Assembly (NCBI GenBank): GCA_963815455.1
Contig: CAWFGO010000001.1
Span: 128,001-192,000, forward strand
From: an uncultured Verrucomicrobiae bacterium
GTDB taxonomy: Bacteria > Verrucomicrobiota > Verrucomicrobiia > Chthoniobacterales > UBA10450
Direction of reading: 5' to 3'
DNA: 64,000 nucleotides
How positions within the stretch are numbered: position 1 is the stretch's first letter; every line of letters starts with the position of its first letter. The position numbers were made by a program, and so were the translations under genes. The notes beneath the pieces are model-generated. The model saw only the letters and a program-made list of their open reading frames with translations, was not told the origin of the DNA and did not search any database. This document shows positions 4,661-46,348 of this stretch, one piece after another.

Positions 4661-5191
4661 ATGACCGTTACCGTTACACGACCCAATCTAAACTGGCGCG
4701 AGCGATTATATCTGCCCGCAATCGTGGCCGGGCTCGCCATTACCTTTAAGCATTTCAAGAACATGTTGCTCGGCCGGACCAAGGTCACGATGCAATATCC
4801 CGAGCAAAAATGGGACGCGAACATGCCCGATTATTATCGCGGCGCGCCTGCGCTGGTCCGCGACACCGACGGTCGCGTCCGATGTGTGGCCTGCCAGCTT
4901 TGCGAATTCATTTGTCCGCCGCGCGCGATCACCATCGTTCCGGACGAGATTTCTTCGACCGACCGGTTCGCCAAGGTCGAGAAATACCCGATCGAGTTCG
5001 ACATCGACATGATCCGCTGCATTTACTGCGGGATGTGCGAAGAAGTTTGTCCCGAGCAGGCGATCTTTCTGCGCAAAGATTACGCCATCACCGGGTTTAC
5101 CCGCGAAGAAATGGTGCATCACAAAGACAAGCTAATCGAAATCGGCGGCGTCATGCACGGGGTCGTTTTGAAATGGAACGCAAAGAAGTAA
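4661..5191 (+). CDS. nuoI: NADH-quinone oxidoreductase subunit I
   Basis: Two CxxCxxCxxxCP [4Fe-4S] motifs; TMQYPEQ. Confidence 0.97.
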   Translation: MTVTVTRPNLNWRERLYLPAIVAGLAITFKHFKNMLLGRTKVTMQYPEQKWDANMPDYYRGAPALVRDTDGRVRCVACQLCEFICPPRAITIVPDEISSTDRFAKVEKYPIEFDIDMIRCIYCGMCEEVCPEQAIFLRKDYAITGFTREEMVHHKDKLIEIGGVMHGVVLKWNAKK

Positions 5192-5194
5192 GAC

Positions 5195-5314
5195 TTGTCA
5201 TCCCGAACCGCGAAGACGGTGAGGGATCTCGCTATTACCTGAAATTGTCGAGCCAAGGCAAGTCGACGACTTGGGCTCCGGCTGTGAGATCCTTCACTTC
5301 GTTCAGGATGACAA
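5195..5314. repeat. Family B palindromic element (TGTCATCCYGA ... GAGATCCTTC..TTCG.TCAGGATGACA)
   Basis: Related copies near 12962-13025, 23852-24036, 26450-26481, 36576-36656, 42826-42995, 45693-45817, 53925-53966 and 54656-54728. Confidence 0.85.
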
Positions 5315-5320
5315 AGCGGC

Positions 5321-5356
5321 GGCGGCGTAATGCACGGCGTCGTCCTAGAATGGAAT
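5321..5356 (+). repeat. Second, diverged copy of the nuoI 3' end (GGVMHGVVLEWN vs GGVMHGVVLKWN at 5144-5179)
   Basis: Direct codon-by-codon comparison. Confidence 0.85.
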
Positions 5357-5373
5357 ACGACAAATGAGTTCGG

Positions 5374-5406
5374 AAATCCGAAATTCGAAATCCGAAATCC
5401 GAAATT
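5374..5406 (+). repeat. Heptamer tandem repeat (AAATCCG/AAATTCG)x4
   Basis: aaatccg aaattcg aaatccg aaatccg aaatt. Confidence 0.85.
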
Positions 5407-5413
5407 AAAGAGA

Positions 5414-5917
5414 ATGTCGCCTTTTTTATTTTGGACTTTCGCAATGCTGATGCTGGTCTTCGGCGCGGCCGTTGTCATCAATCGCAATCCGGTGGCGAGC
5501 GCGCTGAGTCTGGTCGTTTCGTTTCTCGGGCTGGCCGCCCTCTTTATGTCGCTCAATGCCTATTTCATCGGCATCATTCAAGTGCTCGTTTACGCCGGCG
5601 CGGTGATGGTCCTGTTCCTTTTCATCATCATGCTTCTCCATCTTCGCATCGAGGAACGGCGCCGGATCAACTGGACGGCGTCAGCGGGCGGAATTGTCGT
5701 CGCGCTTGTTTTGCTTGTTCAAATCTTTTTCGTGATTGGAAATTTCGAGCCCGCTCGGCAAGCGATTCCGCCACTCACAGCATCGACAATTGATGATGTC
5801 CACAACATCGGCGCTCTGCTTTTCAGCAATTACAATCTTCCTCTGCAAATCATCGGGGTTCTCATTCTCGTGGCGACCATCGGCGTCGTTCTCCTGAGCA
5901 AACGCGAACCAAGATAG
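5414..5917 (+). CDS. nuoJ: NADH-quinone oxidoreductase subunit J
   Basis: NPVASALSL and IQVLVYAGAVMVLFLFIIMLL motifs; start placed at MSPFLFW. Confidence 0.95.
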   Translation: MSPFLFWTFAMLMLVFGAAVVINRNPVASALSLVVSFLGLAALFMSLNAYFIGIIQVLVYAGAVMVLFLFIIMLLHLRIEERRRINWTASAGGIVVALVLLVQIFFVIGNFEPARQAIPPLTASTIDDVHNIGALLFSNYNLPLQIIGVLILVATIGVVLLSKREPR

Positions 5918-5921
5918 TTTA

Positions 5922-6021
5922 GCCCACGAAAATACGCGAAATGACACGAAAACAGAAAATGTCAGGAAATTGCCGATGTTTATCTCTGACATTTTCGCGT
6001 TCTTTCGAGTGTTTAGTGGGC
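5922..6021. repeat. Family A inverted-repeat element (empty)
   Basis: gcccacgaaaatacgcgaaatgacacgaaa ... tttcgcgttctttcgagtgtttagtgggc. Confidence 0.85.
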
Positions 6022-6034
6022 ACAAAACAATAAC

Positions 6035-6355
6035 ATGATCACGCTGGGCGATTATCTCATGGTCAGCGGCGCGCTGTTCGCCATCGGATTCGCCGGCGTG
6101 ATGCTGCGACGCAATCTCATCATTATTCTGATGTCGTTGGAGTTGATGTTGAACGCATCAAATCTATCTCTGGTAGCTTTCTCGCGATTCCGGATCGATC
6201 CCGCCGGCTTGCCGAATTACAGCGCTCAGGTCTTTGTCTTTTTTATCATCACCGTTGCCGCGGCCGAAGTTGCTGTCGGGCTGGCCATCATCGTCGCTCT
6301 CTATCGCGCCCGCCAAACGACGCATGTGGAAGATCTCAGGAGTTTGAAATTTTAG
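6035..6355 (+). CDS. nuoK: NADH-quinone oxidoreductase subunit K
   Basis: [17 protein letters not shown] and [11 protein letters not shown] motifs. Confidence 0.97.
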
Positions 6356-6831
6356 CCCACGAAACACACGAAATGACACGAATGGAAGAAAAGGGAGAAC
6401 TCGTTTACAAAGATGAAAGCTACGCCAGCATCGGCGCGTGTTTCGTCGTCTACAAAGAGAAAGGGCTGCGGATTTCTCGAGCCGGTTTATCACGAGTGCC
6501 TGGAAATCGAGTTCGAATCCCAAAGGATCCCGTTTCGGTCAAAACCACCCCAAACGCTTCAATATCACGGGCGGACCCTTATCCAGACATTTCATCCCGA
6601 TTTCATTTGCTATGATAAGATCATCCTCGAAATCAAAGCTGTCTCCGTACTATGCGATGAGCATCGCGCTCAGGTGCTTAACTATCTCAGCGCGACGGGA
6701 TGCAAATTGGGGCTGCTCGTCAATTTTGGTCATTGGCCAAGAATCGAATACGAACGCCTCCTTCCTAGAAAACATGAACCCGCCGATTTCCGTCTCTGAA
6801 AATTTCGTGTCCTTTCGTGTGTTTAGTGGGC
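6355..6831 (+). mobile_element. Family A element carrying a GxxExxY gene
   Basis: Family A inverted ends enclose the GxxExxY ORF; a second copy of the nuoK 3' end follows. Confidence 0.7.
6382..6799 (+). CDS. GxxExxY family protein (PD-(D/E)XK nuclease-like), one frameshift near 6460
   Basis: MEEKGELVYKDESYASIGACFVVYKEK joins GCGFLEPVYHECLEIE ... PDFICYDKIILEIKAV ... AQVLNYL ... GLLVNFG. Confidence 0.88.
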
Positions 6832-6836
6832 AAAAA

Positions 6837-6902
6837 ATGACTCTTCTTTGCCGTGCCCGACAAACAACCCACGTGGAAGATCTGCGTAGCCTGAAATTTT
6901 AG
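6837..6902 (+). repeat. Mini-ORF (21 aa) containing a synonymously recoded duplicate of the nuoK 3' end; abuts the nuoL ATG
   Basis: 6852-6902 encodes [16 protein letters not shown], identical in peptide to 6305-6355. Confidence 0.9.
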
Positions 6903-8705
6903 ATGGAAGCCGAGAACCTTGTTCCCTGGATCGTGTTGCTCGCGCCGCTGGCCTCGGCGGTCGTGATCACGCTCTTCGCCCGTCGGTCACAAGGGTTGAG
7001 CAGTTTTCTTTCCGTCACTGCTGTGCTCGGGAGTTTTGCCGGGAGCTGCTGGATTTTTCAGCGCACCGGCGATTTCACAGTTGAAATCAATTGGATCGAC
7101 ATCAGCGGCGGGCTCAAGGCGCCGCTCGGGCTCACTCTCGATTATTTGTCCAAGACAATGCTGGTTCTCGTTTCTGGTGTGGGAGCGATTATCCACATTT
7201 ATTCGCTTGGTTACATGCGCGGCGAAGAGGGCAAATCGCGTTATTTCGCCGGTCTGTCGCTCTTCATGTTCGCCATGCTCGGGATCGTTCTGGCCAACAA
7301 CTTCGTGATGTTATTTATTTTTTGGGAGCTGGTGGGATTCACCTCCTACGTGCTCATCGGTCACTGGTTCGATCGTCCGGCGGCGGCAGACGCGGCCAAG
7401 AAGGCGTTCATCACCAATCGTCTCGGCGATTTCGGATTTATGCTTGGCATCCTGATGATTTGGGTGCCGACCGGCTCGGTCGTTTTTCCCGACATCAACG
7501 AGCGATTGTCGATCCTGACGAACAATCCCGCGTATCTGACGGTAGCCGCGCTTCTGATCTTCTGCGGCGCAGTCGGAAAATCCGCGCAATTTCCGCTGCA
7601 CGTCTGGTTGCCAGACGCGATGGAAGGTCCCACGCCGGTCTCAGCGTTGATCCACGCGGCGACGATGGTTGCCGCAGGCGTTTACATGCTGGCCCGCGTC
7701 GCGTTCATCATTCAAGCGTCGGAAACAGCGCTCATGGTCATTGCCTGGATCGGGACGATCACGGCGCTCATGGCCGCGCTGATTGCCACCCAACAGGACG
7801 ACATCAAGCGAGTCCTGGCTTATTCCACGCTTTCGCAGCTCGGTTACATGGTGATGGCCATCGGTCTGGCCTCGAGCGAAGCAGCGATGTTTCACTTGTT
7901 CACCCACGCGTTTTTCAAAGCGCTCCTGTTCCTCGGCGCCGGCTCGGTCATCATCGCGCTGCATCACGAACAGGACATTTGGGAAATGGGCGGCCTCTGG
8001 CGCAATCTCAAGATTACGTTTGTCACATTTCTCATCGGCGCGTTGGCCCTCATGGGTTTGCCGCCGTTCAGCGGTTTTGTCAGCAAGGATGCGATCCTTG
8101 CTCTGGCCTACGAGCATAACAAATCGATCTTCGTGCTCGCCCTGGGCACCGCGTTCTTGACCGCGTTTTATGTCACTCGTTTGCTCATGGTTGTTTTTCT
8201 TGGGCACCCGCGCGGACACGCGGCCCGGGTCAGCAAAGAATCGACGTTTGTCATGACGGGGCCGCTCGTCGTTCTCGCGCTCCTCGTGATTGCGAGCAGT
8301 TTCGCTGCGTTCAACAATCATTTCCTTGTTCTTCCAAGCCAGGGCGCATTTTTAGAGACCGTTCCTTTGTTCGCCACCGGCGCGCTCGTCTTCGGCGTCG
8401 GGCTCGCCTTTCTGTTTTATCGCGGACGCGCCACCGAAGCTGTCTACGTCGATCTTCTCCGCCGCCGTTTTTACATCGACGATTTTTATCAATGGCTCAT
8501 CAACTGGACCCAGGAACTGCTCGCCCGCGTCGCTGCGTTCTTCGATCGCTGGATAATCGACGCCGGCGCGGTCCGCGGAGTGAGCGGCGGCACCTGGGGA
8601 GTCGGCGCGCTGTTGCGATTGGTTCAAGTAGGTAATTTGCAGGCTTACGCGTTTCTCTTCGGCCTGGGCATCGTCGCGCTCATTTATTTTGCCGTTTTCC
8701 GATAG
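6903..8705 (+). CDS. nuoL: NADH-quinone oxidoreductase subunit L
   Basis: GKSAQFPLHVWLPDAMEGPTPVSALIHAATMV; HLFTHAFFKALLFL. Confidence 0.97.
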   Translation: MEAENLVPWIVLLAPLASAVVITLFARRSQGLSSFLSVTAVLGSFAGSCWIFQRTGDFTVEINWIDISGGLKAPLGLTLDYLSKTMLVLVSGVGAIIHIYSLGYMRGEEGKSRYFAGLSLFMFAMLGIVLANNFVMLFIFWELVGFTSYVLIGHWFDRPAAADAAKKAFITNRLGDFGFMLGILMIWVPTGSVVFPDINERLSILTNNPAYLTVAALLIFCGAVGKSAQFPLHVWLPDAMEGPTPVSALIHAATMVAAGVYMLARVAFIIQASETALMVIAWIGTITALMAALIATQQDDIKRVLAYSTLSQLGYMVMAIGLASSEAAMFHLFTHAFFKALLFLGAGSVIIALHHEQDIWEMGGLWRNLKITFVTFLIGALALMGLPPFSGFVSKDAILALAYEHNKSIFVLALGTAFLTAFYVTRLLMVVFLGHPRGHAARVSKESTFVMTGPLVVLALLVIASSFAAFNNHFLVLPSQGAFLETVPLFATGALVFGVGLAFLFYRGRATEAVYVDLLRRRFYIDDFYQWLINWTQELLARVAAFFDRWIIDAGAVRGVSGGTWGVGALLRLVQVGNLQAYAFLFGLGIVALIYFAVFR

Positions 8706-8813
8706 CCCACGAAACACACGAAATGACACGAAAAGGAGAAACAGATCTGATTTACGGCGACTCGCTGATTCCTATTTCTGAAAATTCCGTGTCTTTTCGT
8801 GGGTTTCGTGGGC
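8705..8813. repeat. Family A element, internally deleted GxxExxY-element derivative
   Basis: Family A ends. The interior reads GETDLIYGD (cf. GELVYKD) and tctgaaaattccgtgtc (cf. tctgaaaatttcgtgtc near 6795-6811). Confidence 0.75.
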
Positions 8814-8838
8814 AAGCAAATCCCCTCCTCTTTCTCTG

Positions 8839-10320
8839 ATGCTTCTTTTCCTCATATTTTGCCCGATCGTTGCGGCGTTCGTGATCATGGCCGGCGCGCC
8901 GGCCCGAAAAACGGCGTTGCTCGCTTCGTGGTTGATGCTCGCGTCCGCGGCCGCACTCTTCGCTCAATTCGCGCAGCTCGAACCGAAGTTTCAGTTTGTC
9001 AGTTCATTTCCAATTTCTCCCGAGTTGCATCTCGGCTTTACCGTTGGGCTCGACGGTTTGAGCCTGATCATGGTGCTGCTGGCCGCCATCGTCACGGTCG
9101 CGGCCGTCTGGTTCGCCGGTAAGATCGACAATCACGAAAATGCATTCTACGCCTGCCTGCTTTTTATTTCCGGCGGCGCGATCGGAGCATTTTCGTCGCT
9201 CGATTTGTTTTTCTTTTATGCCTTTCACGAACTCGCGCTCATCCCGACATTCCTGCTGATCGGAATCTGGGGGAGCGGAAATCGCGTGGCCGCGGCGTGG
9301 AAGATCACAATTTATCTCGCAGTCGGTAGCTTCATCTTGCTGCTTGGCTTGATCCTGCTTTACCAAAGCGTCCCGGCCGCATCGCGGAGTTTCGATATTC
9401 GCGAGCTACAGGCTGCGATCGCGACGCGGCAGATTCCGGCGAATGCGCAGCACAACATTTTCCTGCTCCTGCTTGTCGGCTTCGGAATTCTCGTCTCGCT
9501 GTTTCCGTTCCATACCTGGGCGCCGGAGGCGTACGCATCCGCGCCCGCCCCGGCGGCAATGCTGCATGCCGGCGTCCTGAAAAAATTCGGGCTTTACGGT
9601 TTGCTGCGGATTGCCCTCCCGCTGCTCCCGGAAGGAGCGCGGCACTGGAGCCATCTGTTAATCGTGCTGCTGCTCGGGAATATCATTTACATCGGGTTGG
9701 TCACCATCGCGCAAAAACGACTCGATTGGATGCTTGGTTACTCCAGCGTGATGCACATGGGTTACATTTTTCTCGGGATCGCCAGTGCCAACGTTCTCGG
9801 CACCACTGGGGCCGCGACTCTGATATTCGCGCACGGGCTTTCCATCGCGTTGCTGTTCGCGCTGGCGGGGGAAATTCGCACCCGTACCGGCACGCTCGTG
9901 TTCAGCGATCTCGGCGGTCTCGCGAAAGTGATGCCATTCGCCGGTCTCGCCTTCGGGCTCGGCGCATTCGCGGCCATCGGTCTTCCCGGCTTCGCCAACT
10001 TCGCCGGCGAAATCATGATCTTTTTCGGCGCGTTCCGAACCGGCTGGGATATGACGCGGTTCCACACGTTTCAAATCGCGACCGCGCTGGCGCTCTGGGG
10101 CGTGGTGATCTCAGCCGTTTATATGCTCCGCGCGTATCGAAATGCATTCATGGGTCCGCCGAATGAGCGCTGGAACAAGCTTGTCGATCTTCGTCCCGGC
10201 CTGCGCATCCCGATCGCGTTGCTGGTCGCCGCGCTTCTCTGGATCGGATTTTATCCCCAATCGTTTATCCGCATTCTTGCGCCGGCGCCGAGCACTTATT
10301 CCGCATCCGCAAAGCCATGA
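8839..10320 (+). CDS. nuoM: NADH-quinone oxidoreductase subunit M
   Basis: GLDGLSL, FPFHTWAPEAYASAP and YSSVMHMG motifs. Confidence 0.95.
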   Translation: MLLFLIFCPIVAAFVIMAGAPARKTALLASWLMLASAAALFAQFAQLEPKFQFVSSFPISPELHLGFTVGLDGLSLIMVLLAAIVTVAAVWFAGKIDNHENAFYACLLFISGGAIGAFSSLDLFFFYAFHELALIPTFLLIGIWGSGNRVAAAWKITIYLAVGSFILLLGLILLYQSVPAASRSFDIRELQAAIATRQIPANAQHNIFLLLLVGFGILVSLFPFHTWAPEAYASAPAPAAMLHAGVLKKFGLYGLLRIALPLLPEGARHWSHLLIVLLLGNIIYIGLVTIAQKRLDWMLGYSSVMHMGYIFLGIASANVLGTTGAATLIFAHGLSIALLFALAGEIRTRTGTLVFSDLGGLAKVMPFAGLAFGLGAFAAIGLPGFANFAGEIMIFFGAFRTGWDMTRFHTFQIATALALWGVVISAVYMLRAYRNAFMGPPNERWNKLVDLRPGLRIPIALLVAALLWIGFYPQSFIRILAPAPSTYSASAKP

Positions 10321-11741: not shown

Positions 11742-11760
11742 CATCTGCGATCTGACCTCC

Positions 11761-11809
11761 GGAGGGTCGTGCTTCTGCACGACCAGGACGTGAAGAATCA
11801 CGTCCCTCC
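11761..11809. repeat. Family E double-hairpin element (GGAGGG ... CCCTCC)
   Basis: Related copies at 13312-13367 (inside the GST gene) and 44002-44050; half copy near 14273-14297. Confidence 0.8.
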
Positions 11810-16634: not shown

Positions 16635-16658
16635 CATCTGATGCATTATCATCAGATG
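16635..16658. promoter_or_regulatory. Inverted-repeat operator (CATCTGATG-N6-CATCAGATG) overlapping the TA operon promoter
   Basis: Perfect 9-bp inverted repeat; TTGACT at 16625 and TATCAT at 16647; ends on the antitoxin ATG. Confidence 0.7.
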
Positions 16659-16895
16659 ATGCGAACCACCCTTGAGATCGATGATGATGTTCTGGCCGCC
16701 GCCAAGGAACTAGCGGCCCGGCAAAATACCACCGCCGGAAAAATGATCTCTGAAATGGCCCGGCGCGGGATTCAATCCCGGCACGGCAAAGGATCGTCCA
16801 AGCACAGGAATGGATTCGAGATCTTGCCAGCAGACAAACGAGTTGTTACGCCCGATCTCGTCCAGAAGCTTCTTGAAGAATCGGTCGAGCCGTGA
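16656..16895 (+). CDS. vapB: VapB-type antitoxin (RHH/CopG-like)
   Basis: MRTTLEIDDDVLAAAKELA; overlaps the PIN toxin start. Confidence 0.85.
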   Translation: MMRTTLEIDDDVLAAAKELAARQNTTAGKMISEMARRGIQSRHGKGSSKHRNGFEILPADKRVVTPDLVQKLLEESVEP

Positions 16896-17320
16896 TTGCA
16901 CTGCTCGACATTAACATGCTCATTGCGCTCTTCGATGCGGCTCATGTGCATCATGGCGCCGCCCACGAATGGATGACGAAACACCGCTCGTTCGGTTGGG
17001 CAACCTGTCCGATTACCGAGAACGGGTGCGCTCGAGTGATGTCGCAGCCTAACTATCCGGGCCATCTTCCGGTGGCGGAGATTGTGCGCCGGGTTGCGGC
17101 GGCAACGTCGGAACGCGACCACAGGTTCTGGGAGGATTCGATTTCGTTGTGCGATCCGAAGCGGTTCGAACCAGGTCTAATACTGACGTCGCGAAATCTA
17201 ACCGATGTTTATTTGCTCGCGTTAGCGGTTGAAAAAGGGGGCCGGCTTGTCACTTTCGATCGCGCCATACCCTCGCGGGCGATACGAGGAATCAAAGATC
17301 GACATCTCCTTGTATTGTAG
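16892..17320 (+). CDS. vapC: PIN-domain toxin (VapC family)
   Basis: LLDINMLIAL ... TCPITENG ... TDVYLLALA ... LVTFD acidic PIN residues. Confidence 0.9.
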   Translation: MIALLDINMLIALFDAAHVHHGAAHEWMTKHRSFGWATCPITENGCARVMSQPNYPGHLPVAEIVRRVAAATSERDHRFWEDSISLCDPKRFEPGLILTSRNLTDVYLLALAVEKGGRLVTFDRAIPSRAIRGIKDRHLLVL

Positions 17321-17511: not shown

Positions 17512-20500
17512 ATGCATCTCCAATCGCTCGAACTTTTCGGCTTCAAATCGTTCGCCGATAAAACCACCTTCAATTTCCACGAGGGCGTGACGGCCATTGT
17601 GGGGCCTAACGGCTGCGGCAAATCCAATGTGCTCGACGCCATCAAGTGGGTCCTGGGCGAGCAATCCGCCAAATCGCTTCGTGGCGGCGAAATGGCCGAC
17701 GTCATTTTCAACGGCACCGACTCGCGTAAACCGGTCGGGTTTGCCGAAGTCTCCCTCACCTTTTCGGATTGCGCGACGGAACTCGATGTCGATTGGAACG
17801 AAGTGCGGGTGACGCGCCGCGTTTTTCGCGACGGGAATTCGGAGTATTTCCTCAACAAAACGTCCTGCCGTTTGCGCGATATCCAAAGTCTGTTTGCCGA
17901 TACCGGCGTGGGCCGGGCCGCCTACTCGATGATGGAGCAAGGCAAGATCGACATGATCCTGAGCTCGCGTCCGGAAGATCGCCGCGCCATTTTCGAAGAA
18001 GCGGCCGGGATTACGAAGTATAAAACGCAAAAGCGCGAAGCGCTGCGCAAACTGGAAGCGACCGAGGCGAACCTGTTACGCGTGGGTGATATCATTAAGG
18101 AAGTGAAACGCCAGATCGGGTCGCTTCAACGCCAGGCTGGCAAGGCGCGACGTTACCAGGCGTTGCACGCCGATTTGCGGGCGCTCGACACCCACCATTC
18201 TCGCAAGCAACTCGAATCGCTCGAGACCGAGTTGGGAAAATGTCGAGCCGAGATCGAGCGAATCGGCGAATCGGAAACCGCGACGCGCCAGAAGATCGAC
18301 AGCGGCGAAACCGAACTCGGCGAACAACGGCGCGCTCTCGATGAGATCGATACGAAGATCGCCGATGGCCGGACCGAGTTGCAGCGTTTACAAAGCGAAA
18401 TCGGCACGCACCACAGCCGGATCGAATTCAATCGGCAACGGGCCAGTGAACTAACCGAGCTGATCGAGCGCTCCCGAAAAGACATCGCGGGGGCGGAAGC
18501 GAAGCGGACGCAACAACATAAGGACATCGAGCAGGCCAACGCGCTCATTGAAAAAACCAGCACCCTGGTTCAAGCCAGGGAAGCCGAATTGGCCGAGCTG
18601 ACTGCTTCCATTGCCGAATTGCGGACTGAGCGTTCCACGCACGAAACAGAATTGGAAAAACTCCGGGCGTCGTTCTCGAAAAACGAGAGCCGAACGGAGG
18701 AGCTGGAAGACGAGCTTTCCGGAATCACGATTCGCCGGGAAACAACCCAGGAGAATCAGCGCGATCTCGATGCTGCAATTTCCGAGGCGAACAAAGCTCG
18801 AACCAAAGTTGAACAAGAGATTGCCGCCGCGCGCACGGCGACCGCGAGCGCGTTAAAGAACGTCGATCTTCTGAAGACCGACGCGCAGACGCGGGAAGAA
18901 ACTTTGCAGCAACATCGACAGCTTTTGGCCGAAGCCGAGAAGAGCCTCTTGGCGATGGAGCGGGCGCTGGCCGAAAAGGAATCGCGCCTGGAAATCCTGC
19001 GCCAGCTGAATGAAGAAGGCGCAGGACTCGCCCAGGGTTCGCAGGCCGTGCTCAAAGGTCTCGATGATCCGGCCCGGATCCAATCCGCGCTGGCCGGCCC
19101 ATTTGTTTCGAAGCTCGATGTCGATCCTAAGTTCATCGGCGCGATTGAGGCGGCGCTGGGCCGAAGTCTGCAGGCGATCGTTTTGGAAGATCCGGCGCTC
19201 GCGCCGGAAATAATTTCGACATTGACCAGGAAGAATCTGGGACAGGCCGCGTTGATCATTCCGAGACTCGGCAGTTCATCGGCGAAGAAACACGGAAAAC
19301 TTCCGGGAAACTCGCTCGGCTGGGCCATCGACAAAGTGAGGGCTCCGGAATCGCTCGCTCCGCTGGTTGCCCAATTGCTTCACAACGTCGCACTTTTCGA
19401 CAATCTCGATCAGGCCCTGGCCGCGCGCCAAAAACAGAGGCGAGTTCGGCGCAGCCACACTTGCCGGCGAATTTATTTCGATGGAGGGCGTTGTCTTCGG
19501 TGGCAGCAGCGAAACTGCGTCCGATTCGTTGCTCGAGCGCAAATCGCGCATCTCGATCCTGACCGCGGAACATTCGGTCCTGGGCAAGCAACGGGACACT
19601 CTGCGAGAAAAACGAGACGAAGAAACCGCGCGGCTGGAAAAAGCAACGCGCGAATTCGAAAGGGTCCGCGCTCAATTCGAATCGGCTGGGCGTGAGCAAT
19701 CGGTTTCCGAAAGCCGGATTCAATTTCTGGAGCGCGAACGGGAAGAAGTCCAACGCAAGATCGACAATCTGCGCTCGGAAGATGCAACGCTCCGGCAACA
19801 ACTGGACGCGGCCGACGAACGGATTACAGCGCTGCAGGCGGAATTGGAAACGGAACGGGACGCTCTTGCCGAGAAACAGTCGGAACAATCCAGGGCAGAG
19901 GCCGCACGCAACGACCTATCAAAACGCGAAGAGGAAGCCGGTGAGAAGTTGAATGAGCTTCGCCTGGCGCTGGCAACAGAACGTCAACGACAGGACAACC
20001 TGCTGGCGCAACGCCAGCCGATGACCGCCCGCGAAACGGAGCTGGCCGAGACCATCGCCGCTCGCAGGGCCGAGATTGCCGATTTTGAAAAGCGACTGGC
20101 CGCGCAATCGAACGAATCGAGGGACGCGGAAACGGCGATTGAGAAGCAGACCGTGCAACGCGCCGCGTTGGAGCAATCGATTGTTGCGCTGGCGGATCAA
20201 CGTTCAAAACAGCTGGCCGCGACGAATGAAATCGAGTCGGGCCTGCGGAATGTTCGCAACAGCTTGAACGAGCTGCACGATCTGCGTGCGCAACAGCAAG
20301 TCCGCGAATCACAGCTGGGAATGCAGATCGACAATCTGCTCGAACACATCGAGCGGCGGTATCAGCTCAATCTGCGCGAGTTCGCGCTGGATCAGCCGGC
20401 GTTCGAGAAGACGTTGCGAGTGCAGCTGAAACGGCGCGGTGGATCGGCCGCTCCGTCGGACGATGTTAATAATGGCGGCGAAGCCGCGTTAAACTCAGCA

Positions 20501-21277
20501 TCGCGCTCGGAGATCGCGATCCACCAGGATCTTTCGGATGAAGACCTGCAAAAATTAATCGGTGATCTGACCCGCCAGCTCGACAACATGGGCCCGGTTA
20601 ATCTCGAAGCCGTGCAGGAATACGACGAACTCGAAGAGCGTTACAAATTTCTCGAGACCCAGAACAACGATCTCACCAATTCGCGGCGTGAACTGCTGGA
20701 TGTCATCTCCAAGATCAATTTAACCACGCGAAAACTATTCGCCGATACGTTTGCGCAGGTGCGGGCGAATTTTAAAGAGATGTTTGCGGAGCTATTCGGC
20801 GGCGGCCGGGCCGATCTTTTGTTGATGGACGAGAACGATCCGCTCAATTGCGGGATCGAGATCAGCGCAAAACCGCCCGGGAAACAGCTCCAAGCGGTTT
20901 CGCTGCTCAGCGGCGGCGAGCGCGCCATGACGGCGGTGGCGTTGCTCTTTGCGATTTACATGGTCCGCCCGAGTCCATTCTGTATTCTGGACGAGATCGA
21001 CGCGCCGCTCGATGAAAGCAACATCAACCGGTTCGTCAAAATGCTGGAGCGGTTCGTGGCCCAGAGTCAATTCATCATCATCACTCACAACAAGCGCACC
21101 ATCTCCAAGGCCGATATTCTTTATGGGGTCACGATGGAAGAACGCGGCGTGAGCAAACTGGTCGGGATGAAACTGACCGGGCCGCGCGAAGTCGCGACCG
21201 ATCAGGCATCCAACGGCAACGGTAACGGGCATCAGGAAACCGCGACGCAGCGGCATTTCGCCCTGGCAGGACGATAG
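17512..21277 (+). CDS. smc: Chromosome segregation protein SMC, frameshift near 19430, in-frame palindrome at 20438-20525
   Basis: GFKSF, Walker A VGPNGCGKSN, hinge region, LSGGE signature and Walker B ILDEIDAPLD, split over two frames. Confidence 0.95.
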
Positions 21278-21288: not shown

Positions 21289-21433
21289 CTGGGGAGCACA
21301 GGCTGCCAGCCTGTTGTTTTCGGCAGCTTGCCGAAAAGCTCTTCGAACACACAATGTTTAGTCGGCTACGACGTCGAGCAAATGTCGTCGGCAAGCTGCC
21401 GCCGACTGCAGGCTGGCAGCCTGCGCTCCCCAG
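21289..21433. repeat. Family C palindromic element (CTGGGGAGCRCAGGCTGCCAGCCTG ... CAGGCTGGCAGCCTGYGCTCCCCAG)
   Basis: Related copies at 22635-22768, 26252-26382 and 30685-30824; partial copy near 24935-24983. Confidence 0.9.
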
Positions 21434-21494
21434 AATCGATATGCATCCTAAAAAAATTTTGCGCACGGTTGTCGATCCTGCGTAAAATCACTGG

Positions 21495-22562: not shown

Positions 22563-22864
22563 CGAAGCTCGAATGACGAAATCCGAAGGAATGTCCTAAT
22601 GACGAATGACCAAAAGGCGCGCATTCGCGTAACTCTGGGGAGCACAGGCCGCCGGCCTGTGGGATTCGGCCGCTGGCCGAATGCATTTGGGTGCAAATAC
22701 GTTGAGGAACCTAAACAGATTCGCGGCAAGCTGCCGCGAAGTACAGGCTGGCAGCCTGTGCTCCCCGGACACAAAACCCGTTCGCCAATTTTTTATCATG
22801 GCTTCGACATTCGTCGTTGGAATTTCGTCATTGTATCGGCATTCGGATTTCGTGCTTCGTCATT
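22557..22864. repeat. GAATGAC-heptamer inverted arms enclosing a nested family C element
   Basis: Left arm gaatgacgaagctcgaatgacgaaatccgaa; right arm ttcggatttcgtgcttcgtcatt; family C copy at 22635-22768. Confidence 0.8.
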
Positions 22865-23839: not shown

Positions 23840-24045
23840 TATCAATCTGGCGTCATCCTGAGCGAAGCGAAGGACCTGGCAAAAGGTATTGCGCTTCCGC
23901 GTGTGCAAACGCATTATCTGCCGGTGCAAACGCGACGAACGCTTGCGCGATTGTAGCTTCGACTGTGAGGTCCCTCGGTCCGAGCCGGACTGGCATTGTC
24001 TGCGCGGCTCCCGCCACGGCAGGCAGGCGGGATGACAAACGATCA

Positions 24046-24156
24046 TAGATTATGCCTCAAGTTCCAATCACCATGCCGCAGCTCGGCGAATCGATGGCCG
24101 AGGCAACGATTGTTTCAATCAAAGTGAAGCCGGGCGACAAAGTCGCCGCCGATCAG
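24046..24156 (+). repeat. 111-bp direct repeat of the E2 gene 5' end (other copy 24987-25097)
   Basis: 107 of 111 nt identical; encodes MPQVPITMPQLGESMAEATIVSIKVKPGDKVAADQ. Confidence 0.95.
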
Positions 24157-24791
24157 TCGGGAATAGACGGATCGCGGTTGATCACCCGCGATCGGTTAAT
24201 GCGTCGCGGGCGCGTTCTGTAACGTCCCGAGCGTTCTCTTACATGAAACCCGATCTGTTTCGGTAGCGGCTCCGGTTCTGGTGGCGGATCGATGATGTCC
24301 ATCACGCGCTGAAGGATGGTAACAATAGCGGCTTCATGGACATCGAGGCGTTCCTTTAATTCCTTCTCGAGGGCGGACAGTTTGCGCGCCAGTTGGTTCG
24401 TGTCGTTCAGGACCCGCCGCATGGCAATGAACGCGCGCACGACAAACACGCTCATCTGAGCGGCCTGGGTGCTATTAAGTACGTTTGCCGCCATGATCGC
24501 GCCGTGCTCGGTGAAAGCATATGGGCGGCGGCGGCGGCCGCCATGGCTCAAACTTGAGGTGCCAAATTGGTACTTCAAGTCTTGCCATTCGGTGGCAGAA
24601 ATCTGGAACATAAAGTCTTTCGGAAAACGATCGCGATTACGCTTAACAGCCCGATTCAGCGCCTTGGTCTGGACGCCGTAGACTTGGGCCAAGTCAGAAT
24701 CCAGCATGACCTTCTCGCCACGAATTTCGTGGATCAGGCTCGCGAGTCGCTCTACCGCCAACGCCAATCGTTTGTCCGTTCTTGGCATCAT
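24153..24791 (-). CDS. ORF6N (KilA-N-like) domain DNA-binding protein
   Basis: IRGEKVMLDSDLAQVYGVQTKALNRAVKRN..RFPKDFMFQ ... PYAFTEHG; coiled coil; IGF tail. Confidence 0.92.
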   Translation of the reverse strand: MMPRTDKRLALAVERLASLIHEIRGEKVMLDSDLAQVYGVQTKALNRAVKRNRDRFPKDFMFQISATEWQDLKYQFGTSSLSHGGRRRRPYAFTEHGAIMAANVLNSTQAAQMSVFVVRAFIAMRRVLNDTNQLARKLSALEKELKERLDVHEAAIVTILQRVMDIIDPPPEPEPLPKQIGFHVRERSGRYRTRPRRINRSRVINRDPSIPD

Positions 24792-24992
24792 GCGACCGTA
24801 GTGACAATCAGGCCGAAAGAGAAGCGATTTGCTGGTCAGAAGGTTGAGGCTCCGAACTGGCGTTTCATTCTCTGCCACCCTAGAATTGCGGCACGCGTTG
24901 ATCCGATTAAGATGTGCCACAGAATAGAACATTCGGCAGGCGAGACGCCTGCCGGCCTCACAGGCAGGATGCCTGTGCTCCGGAAGTAGATT

Positions 24993-26249
24993 ATGCCTCA
25001 AGTTCCAATCACCATGCCGCAGCTCGGCGAATCGATGGCCGAAGCGACGATTGTTTCAATCAAAGTGAAGCCGGGCGAGAAAGTCGCGGCCGATCAGGAG
25101 ATCATTGAAGTCGAAACTGACAAAGCGATCATGGGCGTGACCACGCCGTGCCCGGGGGAGATTGCGAAGATCGACGCAGAAGTGAAAGGCGTTTATCCGG
25201 TTGGCGCCGTGCTCGGATACGTGGAAGCGAGCGAAGCAGATGCGGCGCGATTTCAAAAACGCGCACCCGAACCGCCAAAGGGCGAAGTATCGATGGAAAT
25301 TCCCGGTCGCGAAGAGGAGCCTGCTGGCGCGGGTAATGGCAGCAGCTCCCATTTTCAAGTGGACGATACCGCTTTGCCGCAAGTCGCAGTGGGGTCGGAT
25401 GTCGATCAACGCGGCGGTTTGCCGGTTCCGGCGAGCGCCAAAGGCGCGGGATATCTTTCGCCGCGGGTCCGAGCCCGCATGGCCGAGTTGCAATTGACCC
25501 AGGCCGATCTTGCCAGCATCGCTGGCACAGGCTCGGCCGGCCGGGTTACGATCAAGGACCTGGAGACTTTTCTCAGTTCGATCGAATCGCAACCAGCGGA
25601 AAAACCGAGCGCGATTCGCACCGGCGTTGCCGATGCGATGCGACGCAGCTGGGCCCGGCCACTGGCAACGGTGGGCGTTTCGGTTTGTTTGGATCCGGTG
25701 CTGCAGGACCGCGCGCAACGCGACCCGAAACCCGGCCCGGCGTTGTATGCGGTGCGCGCGCTAGCCCTCGCACTTGCCGAGCAACCGAACGCCGCCGCTC
25801 GATTGATCGGCGGCCGGGCGATCAGCTCACAATCGATCGACATCGGAGTCGCTGTCGAAGCTGGGGAAGGAATCATGGTCCCGGTGATTCGTAACGCCGA
25901 CAAAACTTCGCTGGCCGACATGATGAATCGTTACACCGAGCTTGTCGATCTTGCGCGACGCCGGCGCCTGACGAGCGAGATGACTTCGGGCGGAATTGCT
26001 TCCGTTTCCAATTTTGGAACGTTCGGCCTGGACTGGGGCACACCGATTCCTCTCCCGGATCAGACGATGATCCTTGGACTCGGCGCAGGAAAGAAAACCC
26101 CGGTGTGGGACGAATCGAAAAATGAATTCGTTCCGAAAACCGAAGCGCAAGTCACATTAAGCTTCGATCATCGTAGCCTCGATGGCGGCGGCGCCGGACG
26201 CTTGCTCAAGCGGGTGATCGAGTTGCTGGAAGAGCCGGAGACGCTCTGA
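24993..26249 (+). CDS. 2-oxoacid dehydrogenase E2 (dihydrolipoamide acyltransferase)
   Basis: Lipoyl domain EVETDKA, binding domain GTGSAGRVTIKD, catalytic LSFDHRSLDG. Confidence 0.92.
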   Translation: MPQVPITMPQLGESMAEATIVSIKVKPGEKVAADQEIIEVETDKAIMGVTTPCPGEIAKIDAEVKGVYPVGAVLGYVEASEADAARFQKRAPEPPKGEVSMEIPGREEEPAGAGNGSSSHFQVDDTALPQVAVGSDVDQRGGLPVPASAKGAGYLSPRVRARMAELQLTQADLASIAGTGSAGRVTIKDLETFLSSIESQPAEKPSAIRTGVADAMRRSWARPLATVGVSVCLDPVLQDRAQRDPKPGPALYAVRALALALAEQPNAAARLIGGRAISSQSIDIGVAVEAGEGIMVPVIRNADKTSLADMMNRYTELVDLARRRRLTSEMTSGGIASVSNFGTFGLDWGTPIPLPDQTMILGLGAGKKTPVWDESKNEFVPKTEAQVTLSFDHRSLDGGGAGRLLKRVIELLEEPETL

Positions 26250-38493: not shown

Positions 38494-39764
38494 TTAGATC
38501 GACAACCCCTCTTTGGCGGTGGCCGCTTCCACTGCGGCTGTGTCGGCGGCGAGATACTTCATTCCCACCAGCCACAGCAAACCCGCAACCAGCATCATTC
38601 CCGACACCACCAGAAAGGCGACCGTCATGTTCGTGTGCCCGCCAATGAAGCCAATGGCGGGGAACGCTGAAACATCGCCCAGTGCGTGAATTACGAGAAT
38701 GTTCAAAGCGAACGCAGTCGCGCGGACCGCGGGCAGCGACACATTGGCGATGGCAGTGTTTGATGGACCGATATTCAAGAAAGCGAAGAAGACGGAAACA
38801 AAAAGAAATATCCACGCTGCCGGAAACGGCACGTAGAGCATGGTGACAAAAAACGGAAACGCCAGGAGCATTCCGACCCCGGAAACCAGGAAGTAAGCTC
38901 CGCCAAAACGCGCCCGCAATCGATCCGCCAGCCAACCGCCGAGCAGGGTTGAGATCAGACCCGCGCTGGCGGCGATGAAGCCGAAGATTACCTTCCCGGA
39001 AGCGGGCGACTGGCCTCGGTAACGCAAGTATTCAGCCATCCAGAAAGCGAGGCCACCTACGGCAAAAGTCGTGGCCGTTTGAGCAAGCGTGTTGATGACA
39101 TAGGAGCGCGCCCGAAAGATCTCGCGGTAGTCGTGCCAGGTGGCGCGTTGTTTTTTGGCCGTTCAATCCCGCGACTCCGTGGATCTCGTTGCGTAAAGCA
39201 AAGCACGCCGAGCAAGAGACCGGGGGGCGTGACCATGTAAAACACCCATCTCCAACCCAAATGCGCGCTGATTGACCCCGCCAGAACGTAGCCGAGCGCA
39301 CTGCCGACCGGGATTGCCGCGCAAAACATTGCGATGATCCGACCGCGCGTGGCCAATGGAAAATGATCGGCCAGGATCGTGGGCGCTGCCGGCCCGTAAG
39401 CACCCTCGCCGATCCCGACAAGAATTCGCATGCCCACCAGGCACGAAAATGTGGCCGCCAAACCGGAGGCGCCGCTGGCCAGACTCCACAAAATCACGGC
39501 ACATCCTATTATCAGCCACCGCGAAAAACGATCGGCCAGCCAGCCAAGCGCGGGTGCCGCCAGCATGTAGGTAATAAGAAATGCGCTCCCCAAAGCGCCA
39601 GTCGTCGCCATGGCGTTGAGATCGGTCGGCAAGAAGAACGTGTCCCGAATCTCGGGCTCAAGAGCGGCCAGAACCTGCCGGTCGATGTAATTGAAAAGAT
39701 TGATCCCGAGCAAGAGCGCCAGGGCAGTCCACGCGCTGGATGTCGATCTTGGCGTGGATGTCAT
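38494..39764 (-). CDS. MFS transporter (spinster-like), frameshift(s) around 39040-39150
   Basis: INLFNYIDRQ, GWLADRFSR, RILVGIGEGAY, GGWLADR, IHALGD. Confidence 0.88.
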
Positions 39765-39814
39765 GGAATTGCTGATTGCAGATAGATGGCTGCACGCGAA
39801 TTGTAAACTCCAAA

Positions 39815-42082: not shown

Positions 42083-42122
42083 TTACCATCGCCCGCGGAG
42101 CGGCCGATCCACCACTTCCCGA

Positions 42123-43970: not shown

Positions 43971-44098
43971 CCGCCGCCCGGCGGGTGGCGTGCAGAGGCT
44001 CGGAGGGACATGCTTCTGCATGTCCCGGACGCGCAGAAGCGCGTCCCTCCGATTCTTGGTGCAGTATCGATTTTTTTCTCGATCCAGAATGGATAGGC

Positions 44099-45622
44099 CT
44101 AATCCACCCAATCCATTGCCGCGAGCATGCTGCGAAAATCCGGGTCATCGGTCGAAAGCGGCGGAAGCCATTCGCCGATTAGCTCGCGTTTCCACCATGC
44201 TTTTTCGCCGGGCGGCGCAAACTGGTAACGATAGAGACGCGCCCGAATGTAATGCGGCGGTGCAGTTGGAAATGGATTGTTTGCGATCAGCGAAAGCGTG
44301 CCGGGATCGTTGTGCAGAAGTTTCCAGACAAAATGGAACGTCCAGGGATAATCGCCTGGCGAGGCCATGGCGGCGAACCAGATTTGCCAGTCGATCCGCG
44401 GTTGATATGGCGCCATGAATGGCGGCCGTCGGTTCGGATCGCCGGGTTTGGCTTTGAATTCGTACTCCTTCCACTCGGCGCCGGTGAGGAACAGGCTGTC
44501 GGTTCCTTCAAAAATGATCTCGTCGCGTTCGCGACCAACAGTTCCGAAGGCACCGTAGGTGTTGACCAGATCAAGCGGGTCGTAGGAGTAATTCATCAAT
44601 TGCCGGCCGGAAGCCAGGTTCAGCACGGGCGCGATGCTCAAATAGGCCACCAGGATCGCCAAAGTGATGGTGAGGCAATTCGTAATCGGCGACGGTTTAG
44701 ATTCCTGTGCAGCTCGCTCAGCGCGCTGAACGAGACCTTTCGGCAAAACGTGGCGTAGAAACGTGTCGTCGAAGCAGGCGAGGAAGGGAATGATCGTCAA
44801 ATAGTTCAGGAACGACAGATTGCCGCTGATGATGAGAAAGATCTGAAGCGTCACCAGCAGCACGCCCGCAACGTGGCGCGCCGTTCGCGGCCCGAATGAG
44901 AACCATGGCACTATTACTTCAACAAAATGGTTCCAAGCCGTTTCAAATTTGAGCAGCCAAAGCGGCGAAAAATGCAAATAGCGGCTGATCGGGTTCGGGA
45001 TCGGCTGGGTCTCGTAGTGATAGTAAAGACAAGTGAGATCGCGCCAGCAAGGATCGCCCCGCAATTTGATGAGCCCGGCCCCGATCATGATTCGAAAACC
45101 GAGCCACCGAAAAAGCCAGATCACAAGAATCGGCGGCCGGCACTTCGGAAACGGGCGGCCATCGAACAGCGGGCAAAGAAAGATCGACAAAAAACCGGTT
45201 TCGAGCAGTTGAATCTCCCAGCCGTAACCGTACCAGATTTGGCCGATGTGAACGATCGACATGTACATCGCCCACAACACCGTGAGAATGATGGCATTGG
45301 CATATCCGGCGAGGAGAACAACCGACAAAGCGAAGCCGATCCAGGAGAAGATCGACAGCGCGTTGTCAGAAATTCCGAACCAGAACAGCGTCGGCATCTG
45401 GAGCATCGCAGCGGACCCCGAACCGGAGTGGGCCTGGATTCGTTCAAGAAAATGATTCGCTGGAGTTAGCCCATGCTCACCAACGAGTGGCACCAGTTGA
45501 TTCGCCGCGACCAGGAAGGCAATCGCGTAAACGAAACCGAGCAGACGAAGAATGATGAATCGCGTCAGCCAGTAGGAATTTCCGAGCGCGAAGAACTTTG
45601 CCAGAATATTCTCGTCATTCAT
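44099..45622 (-). CDS. Lipase maturation factor family protein
   Basis: YGYGWEIQLLETGFL, GLIKLRGD..WRDL...YHYETQPIP, PYQPRIDWQIWFAA. Confidence 0.92.
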   Translation of the reverse strand: MNDENILAKFFALGNSYWLTRFIILRLLGFVYAIAFLVAANQLVPLVGEHGLTPANHFLERIQAHSGSGSAAMLQMPTLFWFGISDNALSIFSWIGFALSVVLLAGYANAIILTVLWAMYMSIVHIGQIWYGYGWEIQLLETGFLSIFLCPLFDGRPFPKCRPPILVIWLFRWLGFRIMIGAGLIKLRGDPCWRDLTCLYYHYETQPIPNPISRYLHFSPLWLLKFETAWNHFVEVIVPWFSFGPRTARHVAGVLLVTLQIFLIISGNLSFLNYLTIIPFLACFDDTFLRHVLPKGLVQRAERAAQESKPSPITNCLTITLAILVAYLSIAPVLNLASGRQLMNYSYDPLDLVNTYGAFGTVGRERDEIIFEGTDSLFLTGAEWKEYEFKAKPGDPNRRPPFMAPYQPRIDWQIWFAAMASPGDYPWTFHFVWKLLHNDPGTLSLIANNPFPTAPPHYIRARLYRYQFAPPGEKAWWKRELIGEWLPPLSTDDPDFRSMLAAMDWVD

Positions 45623-45887
45623 GAAACCACCACCGCGTGACTGAAACCTTCAACGCTCACCGCTCCAGGCCCAACACTCAACTCATTTGCCAGTCATCCC
45701 GAGGCGCGAAGACGCCGAGGGATCTCACAAGTTACGGAACAGCTGCGTAAATAATACGAGCACCGGTTCGAATTCCAATCCGTCCCTCGCGAGGTCCCTC
45801 GCTTCGCTCGGGATGACAAACAAATGACGCCACGCTTCCAGGTCGCGTTGACACGCCCCGCGACGTGTTCAACTTTCTTTGCCTCGC

Positions 45888-45938
45888 GCCAGGGTAGCTC
45901 AGCGGTAGAGCAGCCCCGAAAGCTTTCGGGGTTGGTCG
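45888..45938 (+). repeat. tRNA 5' fragment copy with the anticodon arm replaced by CCCCGAAAGCTTTCGGGG
   Basis: gccagggtagctcagcggtagagcag is identical to the tRNA 5' end, followed by the palindrome and ttggtcg. Confidence 0.9.
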
Positions 45939-45973
45939 CATCCTGAGTTAGAATTGGCGCTACAAAATTTGCC

Positions 45974-46045
45974 GCCAGGGTAGCTCAGCGGTAGAGCAGG
46001 GGACTCATAAGCCCTTGGTCGGGAGTTCAATTCTCCCCCCTGGCA
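45974..46045 (+). tRNA. tRNA with CAT anticodon (Ile2 or elongator Met); CCA not encoded
   Basis: Acceptor GCCAGGG/CCCTGGC, D arm GCTC/GAGC, loop CTCATAA, T arm GGGAG-TTCAATT-CTCCC. Confidence 0.93.
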
Positions 46046-46052
46046 CTCCCCT

Positions 46053-46295
46053 GTGCCGTGGATTTATATTTTGAAAGGTTCATCTGGCCGACATTACATC
46101 GGGTCGACAATTGATCTGGATGCACGACTGGCTCAGCATCGCCGCGGCCACACCCATACAACCAAAAGGCTTGGAAAAAATCTGGACGTGATAGCAAGTA
46201 AAGAAGTAGGGACGCTCGATGAAGCGCGTAAAATCGAGCGGGCATTGAAGGCAAAGAAAAATCCGCAACTCGCCATTCACGCGTTGCAACCCTAG
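46053..46295 (+). CDS. Small GIY-YIG nuclease family protein
   Basis: WIYIL....RHYIGST.DL..RL.QH.....TTK ... A.KIE..LK. Confidence 0.9.
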
Positions 46296-46348
46296 AGCAG
46301 CCCCGAAAGCTTTCGGGGTTGGTCGGGAGTTCAATTCTCCCCCCTGGC
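46293..46348 (+). repeat. tRNA 3' fragment copy with the anticodon arm replaced by CCCCGAAAGCTTTCGGGG
   Basis: tagagcag + palindrome + ttggtcgggagttcaattctcccccctggc, identical to the tRNA outside the anticodon arm. Confidence 0.9.

Follow-up and report, generated by a model that had tools for sequence, protein, structure and literature searches.

Why should the end of a conserved gene occur twice, with a small insert between the two copies? The question is raised by a 64-kb window, the whole stretch of DNA analysed here (C1:128001-192000), from the genome of an uncultured Verrucomicrobiae bacterium, G000. An earlier note on this DNA had described such a layout at four places, namely the 3' ends of the complex I genes nuoI and nuoK, the 5' end of the E2 gene of a 2-oxoacid dehydrogenase operon, and a tRNA-CAU gene, and all four are present (Table 1). 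On balance, we lean towards the view that the inserts are small cassettes brought in by recombination along with the adjoining gene terminus, which displaced the recipient's own; the tRNA locus holds an element of another kind than the protein-gene layouts. We call the copy joined to the working gene the attached copy, and the other the orphan. The G000 assembly comprises 3.6 Mb in 7 contigs and is 90% complete, and its relatives, labelled G001 onwards, are distant (75–88% identity only), G001 belonging to the same genus.

At nuoI, positions 5143-5178 are repeated at 5320-5355 (36 nt, 83% identity), downstream of a 128-nt palindrome, and the orphan tail has lost the stop codon. The palindrome, called 'family B' in the earlier note, is here named MITE-B, a MITE being a miniature inverted-repeat element; the copy behind nuoI folds better than 200 out of 200 shuffles, and its end motif has 385 occurrences in the 3.6-Mb genome. 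The nuoK tail (6298-6355) is repeated at 6845-6902 (58 nt, 78%), on the far side of a GxxExxY cassette bounded by 33-nt inverted repeats (6350-6382 and 6804-6836), each consisting of three 9-nt units, a type of inverted repeat that we named TIR-A. Two copies of the E2 5' end (111 nt, 96%) flank an ORF6N gene, and the 3' part of tRNA-CAU is found again at 46319-46353 (35 nt, 97%), behind a GIY-YIG gene. As self-BLAST missed the short nuoI and nuoK pairs, repeats were also sought with an ungapped all-offset scan (28/36 matches). Candidates for the termini outside the window came from two sources, 23 aligned pairs (3 hand-placed and 20 from 38 two-copy repeats) and 117 two-copy repeats of the all-offset scan, the latter curated in part only. 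A terminus scan on the longest-ORF (open reading frame) gene set, in which nuoI and nuoK are mis-called, was left out of the counts.

The cargo proteins are assigned to PF13366 (E 2.4e-31, 108.9 bits, cut-off 22) and TIGR04256 (E 2.5e-32, 111.7 bits, cut-off 35) at nuoK, to PF10543 at E2 (E 2.5e-33) and to PF01541 at the tRNA (E 5.4e-13). The description of the cargo as nuclease or DNA-binding genes holds for these three Pfam families and is too narrow for the inserts as a whole, which also include bare palindromes as well as PemK, DUF4258 with DUF2283, and DUF2442 genes, and three loci outside the window carry toxin–antitoxin (TA) genes. An endonuclease ORF lies between the copies at nuoK and the tRNA, and is absent at nuoI, E2 and the three TA loci.

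To compare the copies, we set them in the frame of the host gene and calculated P against random substitution of one copy, using nine termini (10 segments) of G000, three in the window and six elsewhere. The 122 differences fall 22/12/88 by codon position and cause 30 residue changes, with P ≤ 0.052 in all 10 segments. Within the window, the nuoI copies differ at 7 nt and one amino acid (P 0.001), the nuoK copies at 13 nt in 19 codons and one amino acid (0 of 20,000 simulations as low), and the E2 copies at 4 nt, all in third positions, and one amino acid (P 0.05). That the protein-gene copies differ mostly at synonymous sites is thus borne out, with a third-position share of 72% (88/122), against about 45% estimated for an identical duplicate that decayed with selection acting on the attached copy only. 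Because of this difference we consider the copies allelic: they behave like two working alleles and not like a decaying target-site duplication, as had been argued in the earlier note. Some orphans do show decay, with in-frame stops in an aldehyde dehydrogenase (ALDH) orphan and in one orphan of contig C5, both described below.

The same figures bear on the possibility that insertion itself duplicated the target locally, by slippage or as a long target-site duplication, and that the two copies then diverged where they lay. Such an origin would suit the E2 copies, which are nearly identical and both of a G000-specific type, and the perfect repeats of the tRNA elements. The third-position excess is, however, unlike the free decay of an orphan, the repeat length is not fixed, and at two loci one copy is 93–94% identical to another genus, so that as a general account we regard it as very improbable; at nuoK, the ALDH end and the C5 pair it is already refuted.

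The earlier note had further proposed that each insert arrived with a piece of the gene from another lineage. This origin is best shown, as judged from identities to relatives, at two loci outside the window, the ALDH end and C5, where one copy is 93–94% identical to another genus and the gene body 76–81%. The attached ALDH tail is 93.6% identical to that of G020 and the gene body about 80%, the orphan tail being at background level (74–86% to all relatives). Along the gene, identity between G000 and G020 is 67–87% in the body and 92–100% only over about the last 130 nt, and it rises 20–30 nt upstream of the repeat edge, which would be consistent with a homologous junction. In G000 the ALDH cargo is DUF4258 with DUF2283; in G020 another cargo, by eye a putative HigB/HigA-like pair, lies between two copies of that genome's own ALDH tail. 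A third tail fragment in G000 (39 nt) differs from the attached tail by six changes, all six synonymous (by eye). The ALDH end is a hotspot at which displacement has occurred in succession. The three tails of G000 (attached, 114-nt orphan and 39-nt fragment) lie at C3:650190-651104, and the G020 counterpart at L235 1986-2832.

On C5, about 260 nt over two convergent gene ends are duplicated around a DUF2442 gene, and the orphan tail matches G009 at 67/72 positions (93%) vs 60/75 (80%) for its own partner. With one whole copy native-looking and the other foreign-looking, the pair would fit a single crossover well. The pair at C1:373363, with a PemK-like cargo, shows no clear affinity (85.7% vs 86.3% to G001). 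Inside the window the support for a foreign origin is weaker. The nuoI orphan matches G001 at 34/36 positions and the attached tail at 30/36, which lends modest support to a copy from another lineage given an overall G000–G001 identity of about 85%; at this sliding identity the two genomes are too distant for junctions to be placed in nuoI, nuoJ or nuoK. The attached nuoK tail is nearest to G009 and G013 (48/57, among 28 relatives), and at nuoK the argument comes from the codon pattern only.

How might such an import proceed? A small selfish cassette would reside at the border of a conserved gene and travel between related lineages joined to the adjacent piece of that gene; it may hold a TA pair, a DNA-binding gene or a nuclease gene enclosed by inverted repeats, or be no more than a bare palindrome. 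Upon entry, donor and recipient versions of the conserved gene would pair on one side, and the other side would be closed either by a non-homologous join (homology-facilitated illegitimate recombination, HFIR) or through a single, Campbell-type crossover of a circularised molecule carrying terminus and cargo. The outcome would be one imported and one resident terminus copy flanking the cargo; at the 3'-end sites that could be judged, it is the imported copy that adjoins the gene, the resident one being pushed aside and not lost. Later spread could occur by ordinary homologous exchange. The recombination route itself is our inference, and we consider an import anchored on the conserved gene the simplest account because the cargo is varied, the junctions are variable, one ALDH allele is found with two cargos and no recombinase lies nearby.

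Several observations weigh against this account. Four of the six other genera with a cassette at nuoK have no orphan tail, and so insertion there is possible without duplication of the terminus. The two nuoK tails tie in their match to G001 (42/42), and the identity of 75.8% between the G000 and G009 cassettes is no higher than that of the genes on either side, a divergence that would also suit old vertical descent. At E2, both copies share the peptide IVSIKVKPG, specific to G000 among 15 aligned relatives, and group together; this and their 96% identity are compatible with a local duplication. The genome has seven tyrosine recombinase matches above the family cut-off, in five contig regions. 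No donor junction was seen, and one-sided homology with an illegitimate join, Campbell-type integration and site-specific integration leave the same picture. HFIR is also reported to be rare in the laboratory (PMC5361080). As to a piece from another lineage, the claim is directly supported at ALDH and C5, and in the window it meets a modest signal at nuoI, a tie at nuoK and a common grouping at E2.

Empty sites were sought in the relatives, as the earlier note had suggested, and the nuoK/nuoL junction is uninterrupted in 19 of the 28 with a readable junction. A GxxExxY cassette starts immediately behind the nuoK stop in six (G011, G013, G023, G018, G009 and G022), an empty hairpin of the G000 type is present in one (G001), and other palindromes in two (G005 and G004). 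Inverted repeats of three kinds are found at this junction, with arms that match each other within every element. Orphan nuoK tails measure 33 nt in G018 and 12 nt in G009, so that the repeat length at this one site is 58, 33, 12 or 0 nt across genera and there is no fixed target-site duplication. Reuse of a site in other genera, sometimes with other cargo, is seen at the nuoK/nuoL junction, the ALDH end and the tRNA-CAU gene. In G001, a palindrome of the MITE-B family lies directly 3' of the nuoI stop, with no orphan. No gap at E2 is big enough for an ORF6N-type insert in 29 relatives (the largest, 433 nt, is in G013). Three unpublished genomes enter these comparisons: G008 is counted among the 19 uninterrupted junctions and the 28 relatives of the tail comparisons; the 29 E2 loci include G003, G008 and G015, and the 15 aligned relatives the first two of these; all three are also rows in the C5 and ALDH/C1 comparison tables, and no claim hangs on them alone.

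Further TIR-A hairpins occur in G000 after nuoH, nuoJ and nuoL, all without orphans. Since an empty TIR-A hairpin retains the first and last codons of the GxxExxY gene, we take the empty hairpins to be deletion derivatives. The nuoH stop TAA (4572-4574) lies within the left arm of one of them, with no orphan nuoH tail downstream, and the TIR-A element appears to supply the last codons and stop of nuoH.

An independent view of the nuoI layout comes from soil metagenome contigs of two runs of one study, chosen as the only runs with 5% of the sampled words, matched to G000 at 85% likeness and read solely for the junctions that they bridge. One contig per run extends from the nuoI tail through the entire palindrome into the orphan, of which it covers the first 24 nt; 14–17 letters in 179–207 are other than in G000 (about 92% identity). 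Another contig links position 5125 to 5320, with 17 other letters replacing 17; it is an uninterrupted nuoI with an orphan-type tail, that is, an insert-free allele. Some soil contigs lack the nuoJ/nuoK hairpin, and some have an empty hairpin after nuoK.

These contigs also bear on whether the assembly has strung two strain alleles in tandem, an outcome that the earlier note had named as fatal to its proposal. The 7-contig, roughly 90% complete assembly does have many split genes, including, in the window, those for SMC (17512-21277), a major facilitator superfamily (MFS) transporter (38497-39764), squalene-hopene cyclase (49978-51845), peptidase M3 (54748-56866) and a TonB-dependent receptor (59452-62337), each in at least two ORFs. 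This pattern fits single-base indel errors, and for this reason frame breaks were not taken as decay; the GxxExxY reading frame, broken near codon 30, may likewise be an assembly error. A chimera is nevertheless extremely improbable, as the layouts recur in other genomes and in independent soil contigs: the two spanning contigs come from other runs, orphan nuoK tails in G018 and G009 and the ALDH layout in G020 come from separate assemblies, the tRNA layout is found in the cultured Rubritalea marina DSM 17716, and the copy edges have no long identical word that could close an assembly bubble.

Two of the four cargos in the window belong to nuclease families (PF13366 and PF01541), which brings in nuclease-driven homing. 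Here the nuclease would cut an insert-free gene end, and repair would copy in the cassette with a recoded terminus, the recipient's terminus serving as the right homology arm. Occupation of the nuoK site in six other genera and of 18–19 of 25 related loci by the tRNA element would agree with this, as would the retention of the first and last nuclease codons in empty hairpins, expected of a decayed homing gene, and the likeness to the atp6, atp9, cox2 and nad3 hybrids of fungal mitochondria (PMC3630166). It does not explain the lack of an ORF at nuoI, the DNA-binding cargo at E2 or the TA genes at three outside loci. Moreover, G000 and G020 have the ALDH tail allele in common and not the cargo, four of six nuoK cassettes of other genera lack an orphan, and cleavage by either nuclease is predicted from its family assignment. 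We therefore think it rather unlikely that homing explains the layouts as a whole. Within an import anchored on the conserved gene, the GxxExxY and GIY-YIG cargos may still make the starting break, the recoded or hairpin-bearing copy then escaping re-cutting.

The absence of a recognisable recombinase, also claimed in the earlier note, was confirmed: no integrase or transposase family was found among the 56 window ORFs scanned, nor in any insert. The closest match to PF00589 lies on the same contig, at a distance of over 1.3 Mb. A recombinase acting in trans on non-autonomous inserts, with an attachment site that carries the gene end, could draw on one of the seven genomic matches. The perfect direct repeats at the tRNA genes (33 nt at tRNA-CAU, 31 and 29 nt at tRNA-Pro) and a block of 33 identical nt at the upstream border of the C1:373363 repeat (130 nt) would be in keeping with it. 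The nuoK and C5 pairs, however, have no identical block at their edges, the longest identical runs in the nuoK pair being 11 nt, and at a single site the orphan measures anything between 0 and 58 nt across genera. Together with the lack of a recombinase in the inserts and the 64-kb window, this makes a trans-acting enzyme unlikely, and more so than homing. On the side of import, G000 has the uptake gene ComEC, as do 10 of 14 control genomes.

Table 1. Features of the terminus-duplication loci; window positions, except for the ALDH gene end on contig C3.
Feature	Position	Strand	Remarks
Empty TIR-A hairpin, nuoH/nuoI	4563-4652	+	-18.1 kcal/mol vs -6.9 for shuffles, z -5.1
nuoI	4661-5191	+	Working tail 5143-5191 is the attached copy
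MITE-B palindromic repeat	5192-5319	+	No gene inside; fold z -3.8
Orphan nuoI tail	5320-5368	+	GGVMHGVVLEWN, then decayed; in frame with nuoJ
Empty TIR-A hairpin, nuoJ/nuoK	5917-6027	+	Fold z -5.5
nuoK	6035-6355	+	Working tail 6298-6355 is the attached copy
GxxExxY (PD-(D/E)XK) cassette	6350-6836	+	ORF 6373-6799, frame break near 6465
Orphan nuoK tail	6845-6902	+	Its stop abuts the nuoL ATG at 6903
TIR-A hairpin with gene remnants	8703-8816	+	Directly 3' of the nuoL stop; fold z -8.6
MITE-B copy	23850-24040	+	Between E1-beta stop and orphan E2 start
Orphan E2 5' end	24046-24156	+	5 nt upstream plus 35 codons
ORF6N-domain cargo gene	24153-24791	-	Stop overlaps last bases of the orphan copy
Attached E2 5' end	24987-25097	+	E2 gene 24993-26249
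tRNA 5' half (acceptor and D arm)	45887-45938	+	Then hairpin CCCCGAAAGCTTTCGGGG (45914-45931) for the anticodon arm
Complete tRNA	45974-46046	+	Anticodon CAU
GIY-YIG nuclease gene	46053-46295	+	80 aa, single domain
tRNA 3' part	46293-46353	+	D-arm end, hairpin 46301-46318, variable loop, T arm, acceptor end
ALDH gene end, G000	C3:648840-650303		

The tRNA locus does not fit the description as a simple allelic gene end. In the downstream fragment the hairpin CCCCGAAAGCTTTCGGGG stands where the anticodon arm would be, and there is a third tRNA piece, at 45887-45938. A 33-nt perfect direct repeat (45906-45938 and 46293-46325) encloses a spacer, the full tRNA and the nuclease gene, and the stop TAG of the latter forms the first three bases of the downstream fragment; tRNA is the only Rfam match at gathering score in the window. 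The other two GIY-YIG genes of G000 each follow a complete tRNA (Pro-CGG and Pro-GGG), and a tRNA 3' part, carrying a different hairpin, comes after each. The tRNA-CAU sequence could be read as an element that takes the place of the host tRNA's anticodon arm, caps both halves with its hairpin and supplies a spare tRNA; alternatively, an insertion just downstream of the tRNA and a second one upstream would account for the same sequence. The hairpin core has about 40 copies in G000, mostly inside MITE-B ends (GTCATCC...GGATC).

The public loci closest to this GIY-YIG gene belong to Verrucomicrobiota (Chthoniobacterales, Candidatus Udaeobacter and uncultured Verrucomicrobiae). Six relatives were read at the syntenic locus: G010 has a cassette and G013 two in tandem, G024 a remnant, G016 a hairpin fragment at the locus edge, and G011 and G012 a plain tRNA. 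A pattern scan of species-representative genomes gave 79 loci, 60 of which were scanned for tRNAs, and the best 25 (24 Verrucomicrobiota and 1 Nomurabacteria) were tabulated. All 25 have a same-strand tRNA upstream (23 CAU, 2 Lys-UUU), ending at most 20 nt from the nuclease match in 19; in 19 the tRNA tail recurs downstream (at least 24/28), and the motif GAGCAG-hairpin-TTGG is present in 18 downstream and 15 upstream. Stem variants of the hairpin alter on both sides (GAA...TTC vs GAC...GTC; by eye).

A more general possibility, which we advance only tentatively, is that bacteria have a recombinase-free route for small cassettes, in which a copy of the neighbouring conserved gene's terminus serves the cassette as a homing arm. 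In that case the duplicate at its flank would record one move and enable the next: the cassette would be excised between the copies and would pair with the conserved gene upon re-entry, whether or not the cargo nuclease had first made a break. In its sharpest form, the GIY-YIG/hairpin element, found mainly in Verrucomicrobiota, would split the tRNA gene at the anticodon arm, cap both halves with the hairpin and carry a spare working tRNA.

Some neighbouring features deserve mention. Four tandem copies of a tRNA 5' half with hairpin, at 81-nt spacing, lie upstream of the tRNA/GIY-YIG cassette at L105 262-523. Elsewhere in G000, two copies of a tRNA 3' end at a distance of 1.3 kb (C1:1687748-1687796 and 1689127-1689175) enclose a 271-aa ORF, in what resembles a classical attachment-site duplication. 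E1-alpha is flanked on both sides (21289-21434 and 22635-22769) by palindromic repeats of a third family (GGAGCACAGGCTGCCAGCCTGT...), and a copy of this type fills the nuoK/nuoL gap of G005. The closest relative of the ORF6N gene, in G021 (75%), precedes a putative type I methylase (by eye), and neither an E2 fragment nor a gene-end repeat was found at that locus; a relative in G013 (73%) gave no gene-end repeat in the repeat scan, the sole check there. An ORF6N homologue of about 45% identity is found in 11 relatives at 3.4–4.2 kb from nuoK of the second complex I operon, and therefore one ORF6N paralogue is a conserved resident and not mobile cargo. A PIN-domain gene preceded by a small ORF, likely a VapBC pair, occupies 16641-17320, with SMC on one side and an amino-acid permease on the other; the 28/36 scan found no terminus repeat there.

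If the import of cassettes with gene termini is correct, complex I and 2-oxoacid dehydrogenase operons and tRNA genes would be regular entry points for cassettes in soil Verrucomicrobiota, and exchange between genera would leave readable scars. Orphan termini could be used to trace and date gene flow in uncultured lineages, and gene tails can derive from another genus, as the ALDH end indicates (tail 94% to G020, body 80%). A new nuclease specificity may be sought in the tRNA/GIY-YIG/hairpin element, a candidate that can be tested in the cultured R. marina strain.

Among known systems, integration into a gene end that restores the gene is familiar from prophage e14 or phage 21 at icd and from islands at tRNA genes. 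As in e14 at icd, the element-borne end replaces the resident one, which is left as an orphan with synonymous differences. Unlike e14, our inserts are small (0.13–0.9 kb), have no integrase inside or nearby, and show variable repeat lengths at one site.

A second likeness is to C-terminal displacement in Rhs and type VI secretion system (T6SS) loci, where orphan 3' regions are found and HFIR was proposed (PMC5361080). The conserved upstream anchor, the new downstream module and the old ends shifted downstream are shared with these loci, as are arrays, represented here by the three tails at the ALDH end of G000. The difference is that housekeeping termini are displaced here instead of variable toxin domains, with no apparent selection for a new tail function.

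The Ssn family consists of small GIY-YIG nucleases that act on single strands and are flanked by hairpin repeats named SRM, and in Neisseria the NTS repeat is bound by one of them, SsnA (PMC11893778). The tRNA element resembles them in its small single-domain GIY-YIG gene, in the same hairpin on both sides and in the multicopy hairpin core, and the outline GTCATCC...GGATC of the MITE-B ends recalls the NTS repeat. It differs in that the hairpin sits inside tRNA fragments, an arrangement not described in the consulted sections of that paper. The published SRM pattern has no site in the window and 20 in the genome, vs 34–44 in three block shuffles, and the solved proteins nearest to the GIY-YIG protein are UPF0213 members (E 0.011–0.03). 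With no SRM enrichment and a nearest solved match to UPF0213 at E 0.011, we refrain from assigning the gene to Ssn; the resemblance in design stands.

In view of these systems, calling the route undescribed, as the earlier note did, was too strong, HFIR having been proposed (PMC5361080) and the layout itself printed for mobile endonuclease ORFs (mORFs) of fungal mitochondria, which form gene hybrids at atp6, atp9, cox2 and nad3 of Glomus, with Allomyces atp6 cited as a further case (PMC3630166). No paper on this layout in bacterial chromosomes was found in the literature searched, which did not extend to subscription journals; the layout is known from fungal mitochondria and prophages and is little described in bacterial core operons. 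Our loci are set apart from mORFs by their location in core operons and a tRNA gene of a bacterial chromosome, by cargo that often includes no nuclease, by the PD-(D/E)XK GxxExxY and 80-aa GIY-YIG families, by hairpins or inverted repeats that bound the cassettes, and by one 5'-end case. They resemble mORFs in the succession of gene core, inserted C-terminus, small ORF and second C-terminus downstream, and in differences that are largely synonymous (PMC3630166). In mORFs the inserted C-terminus is foreign and the downstream one is native and matches close relatives; a foreign inserted end is clear here at the ALDH end and modestly indicated at nuoI. For the two nuclease cargos the mORF model, which may well supply the break, is the closest precedent.

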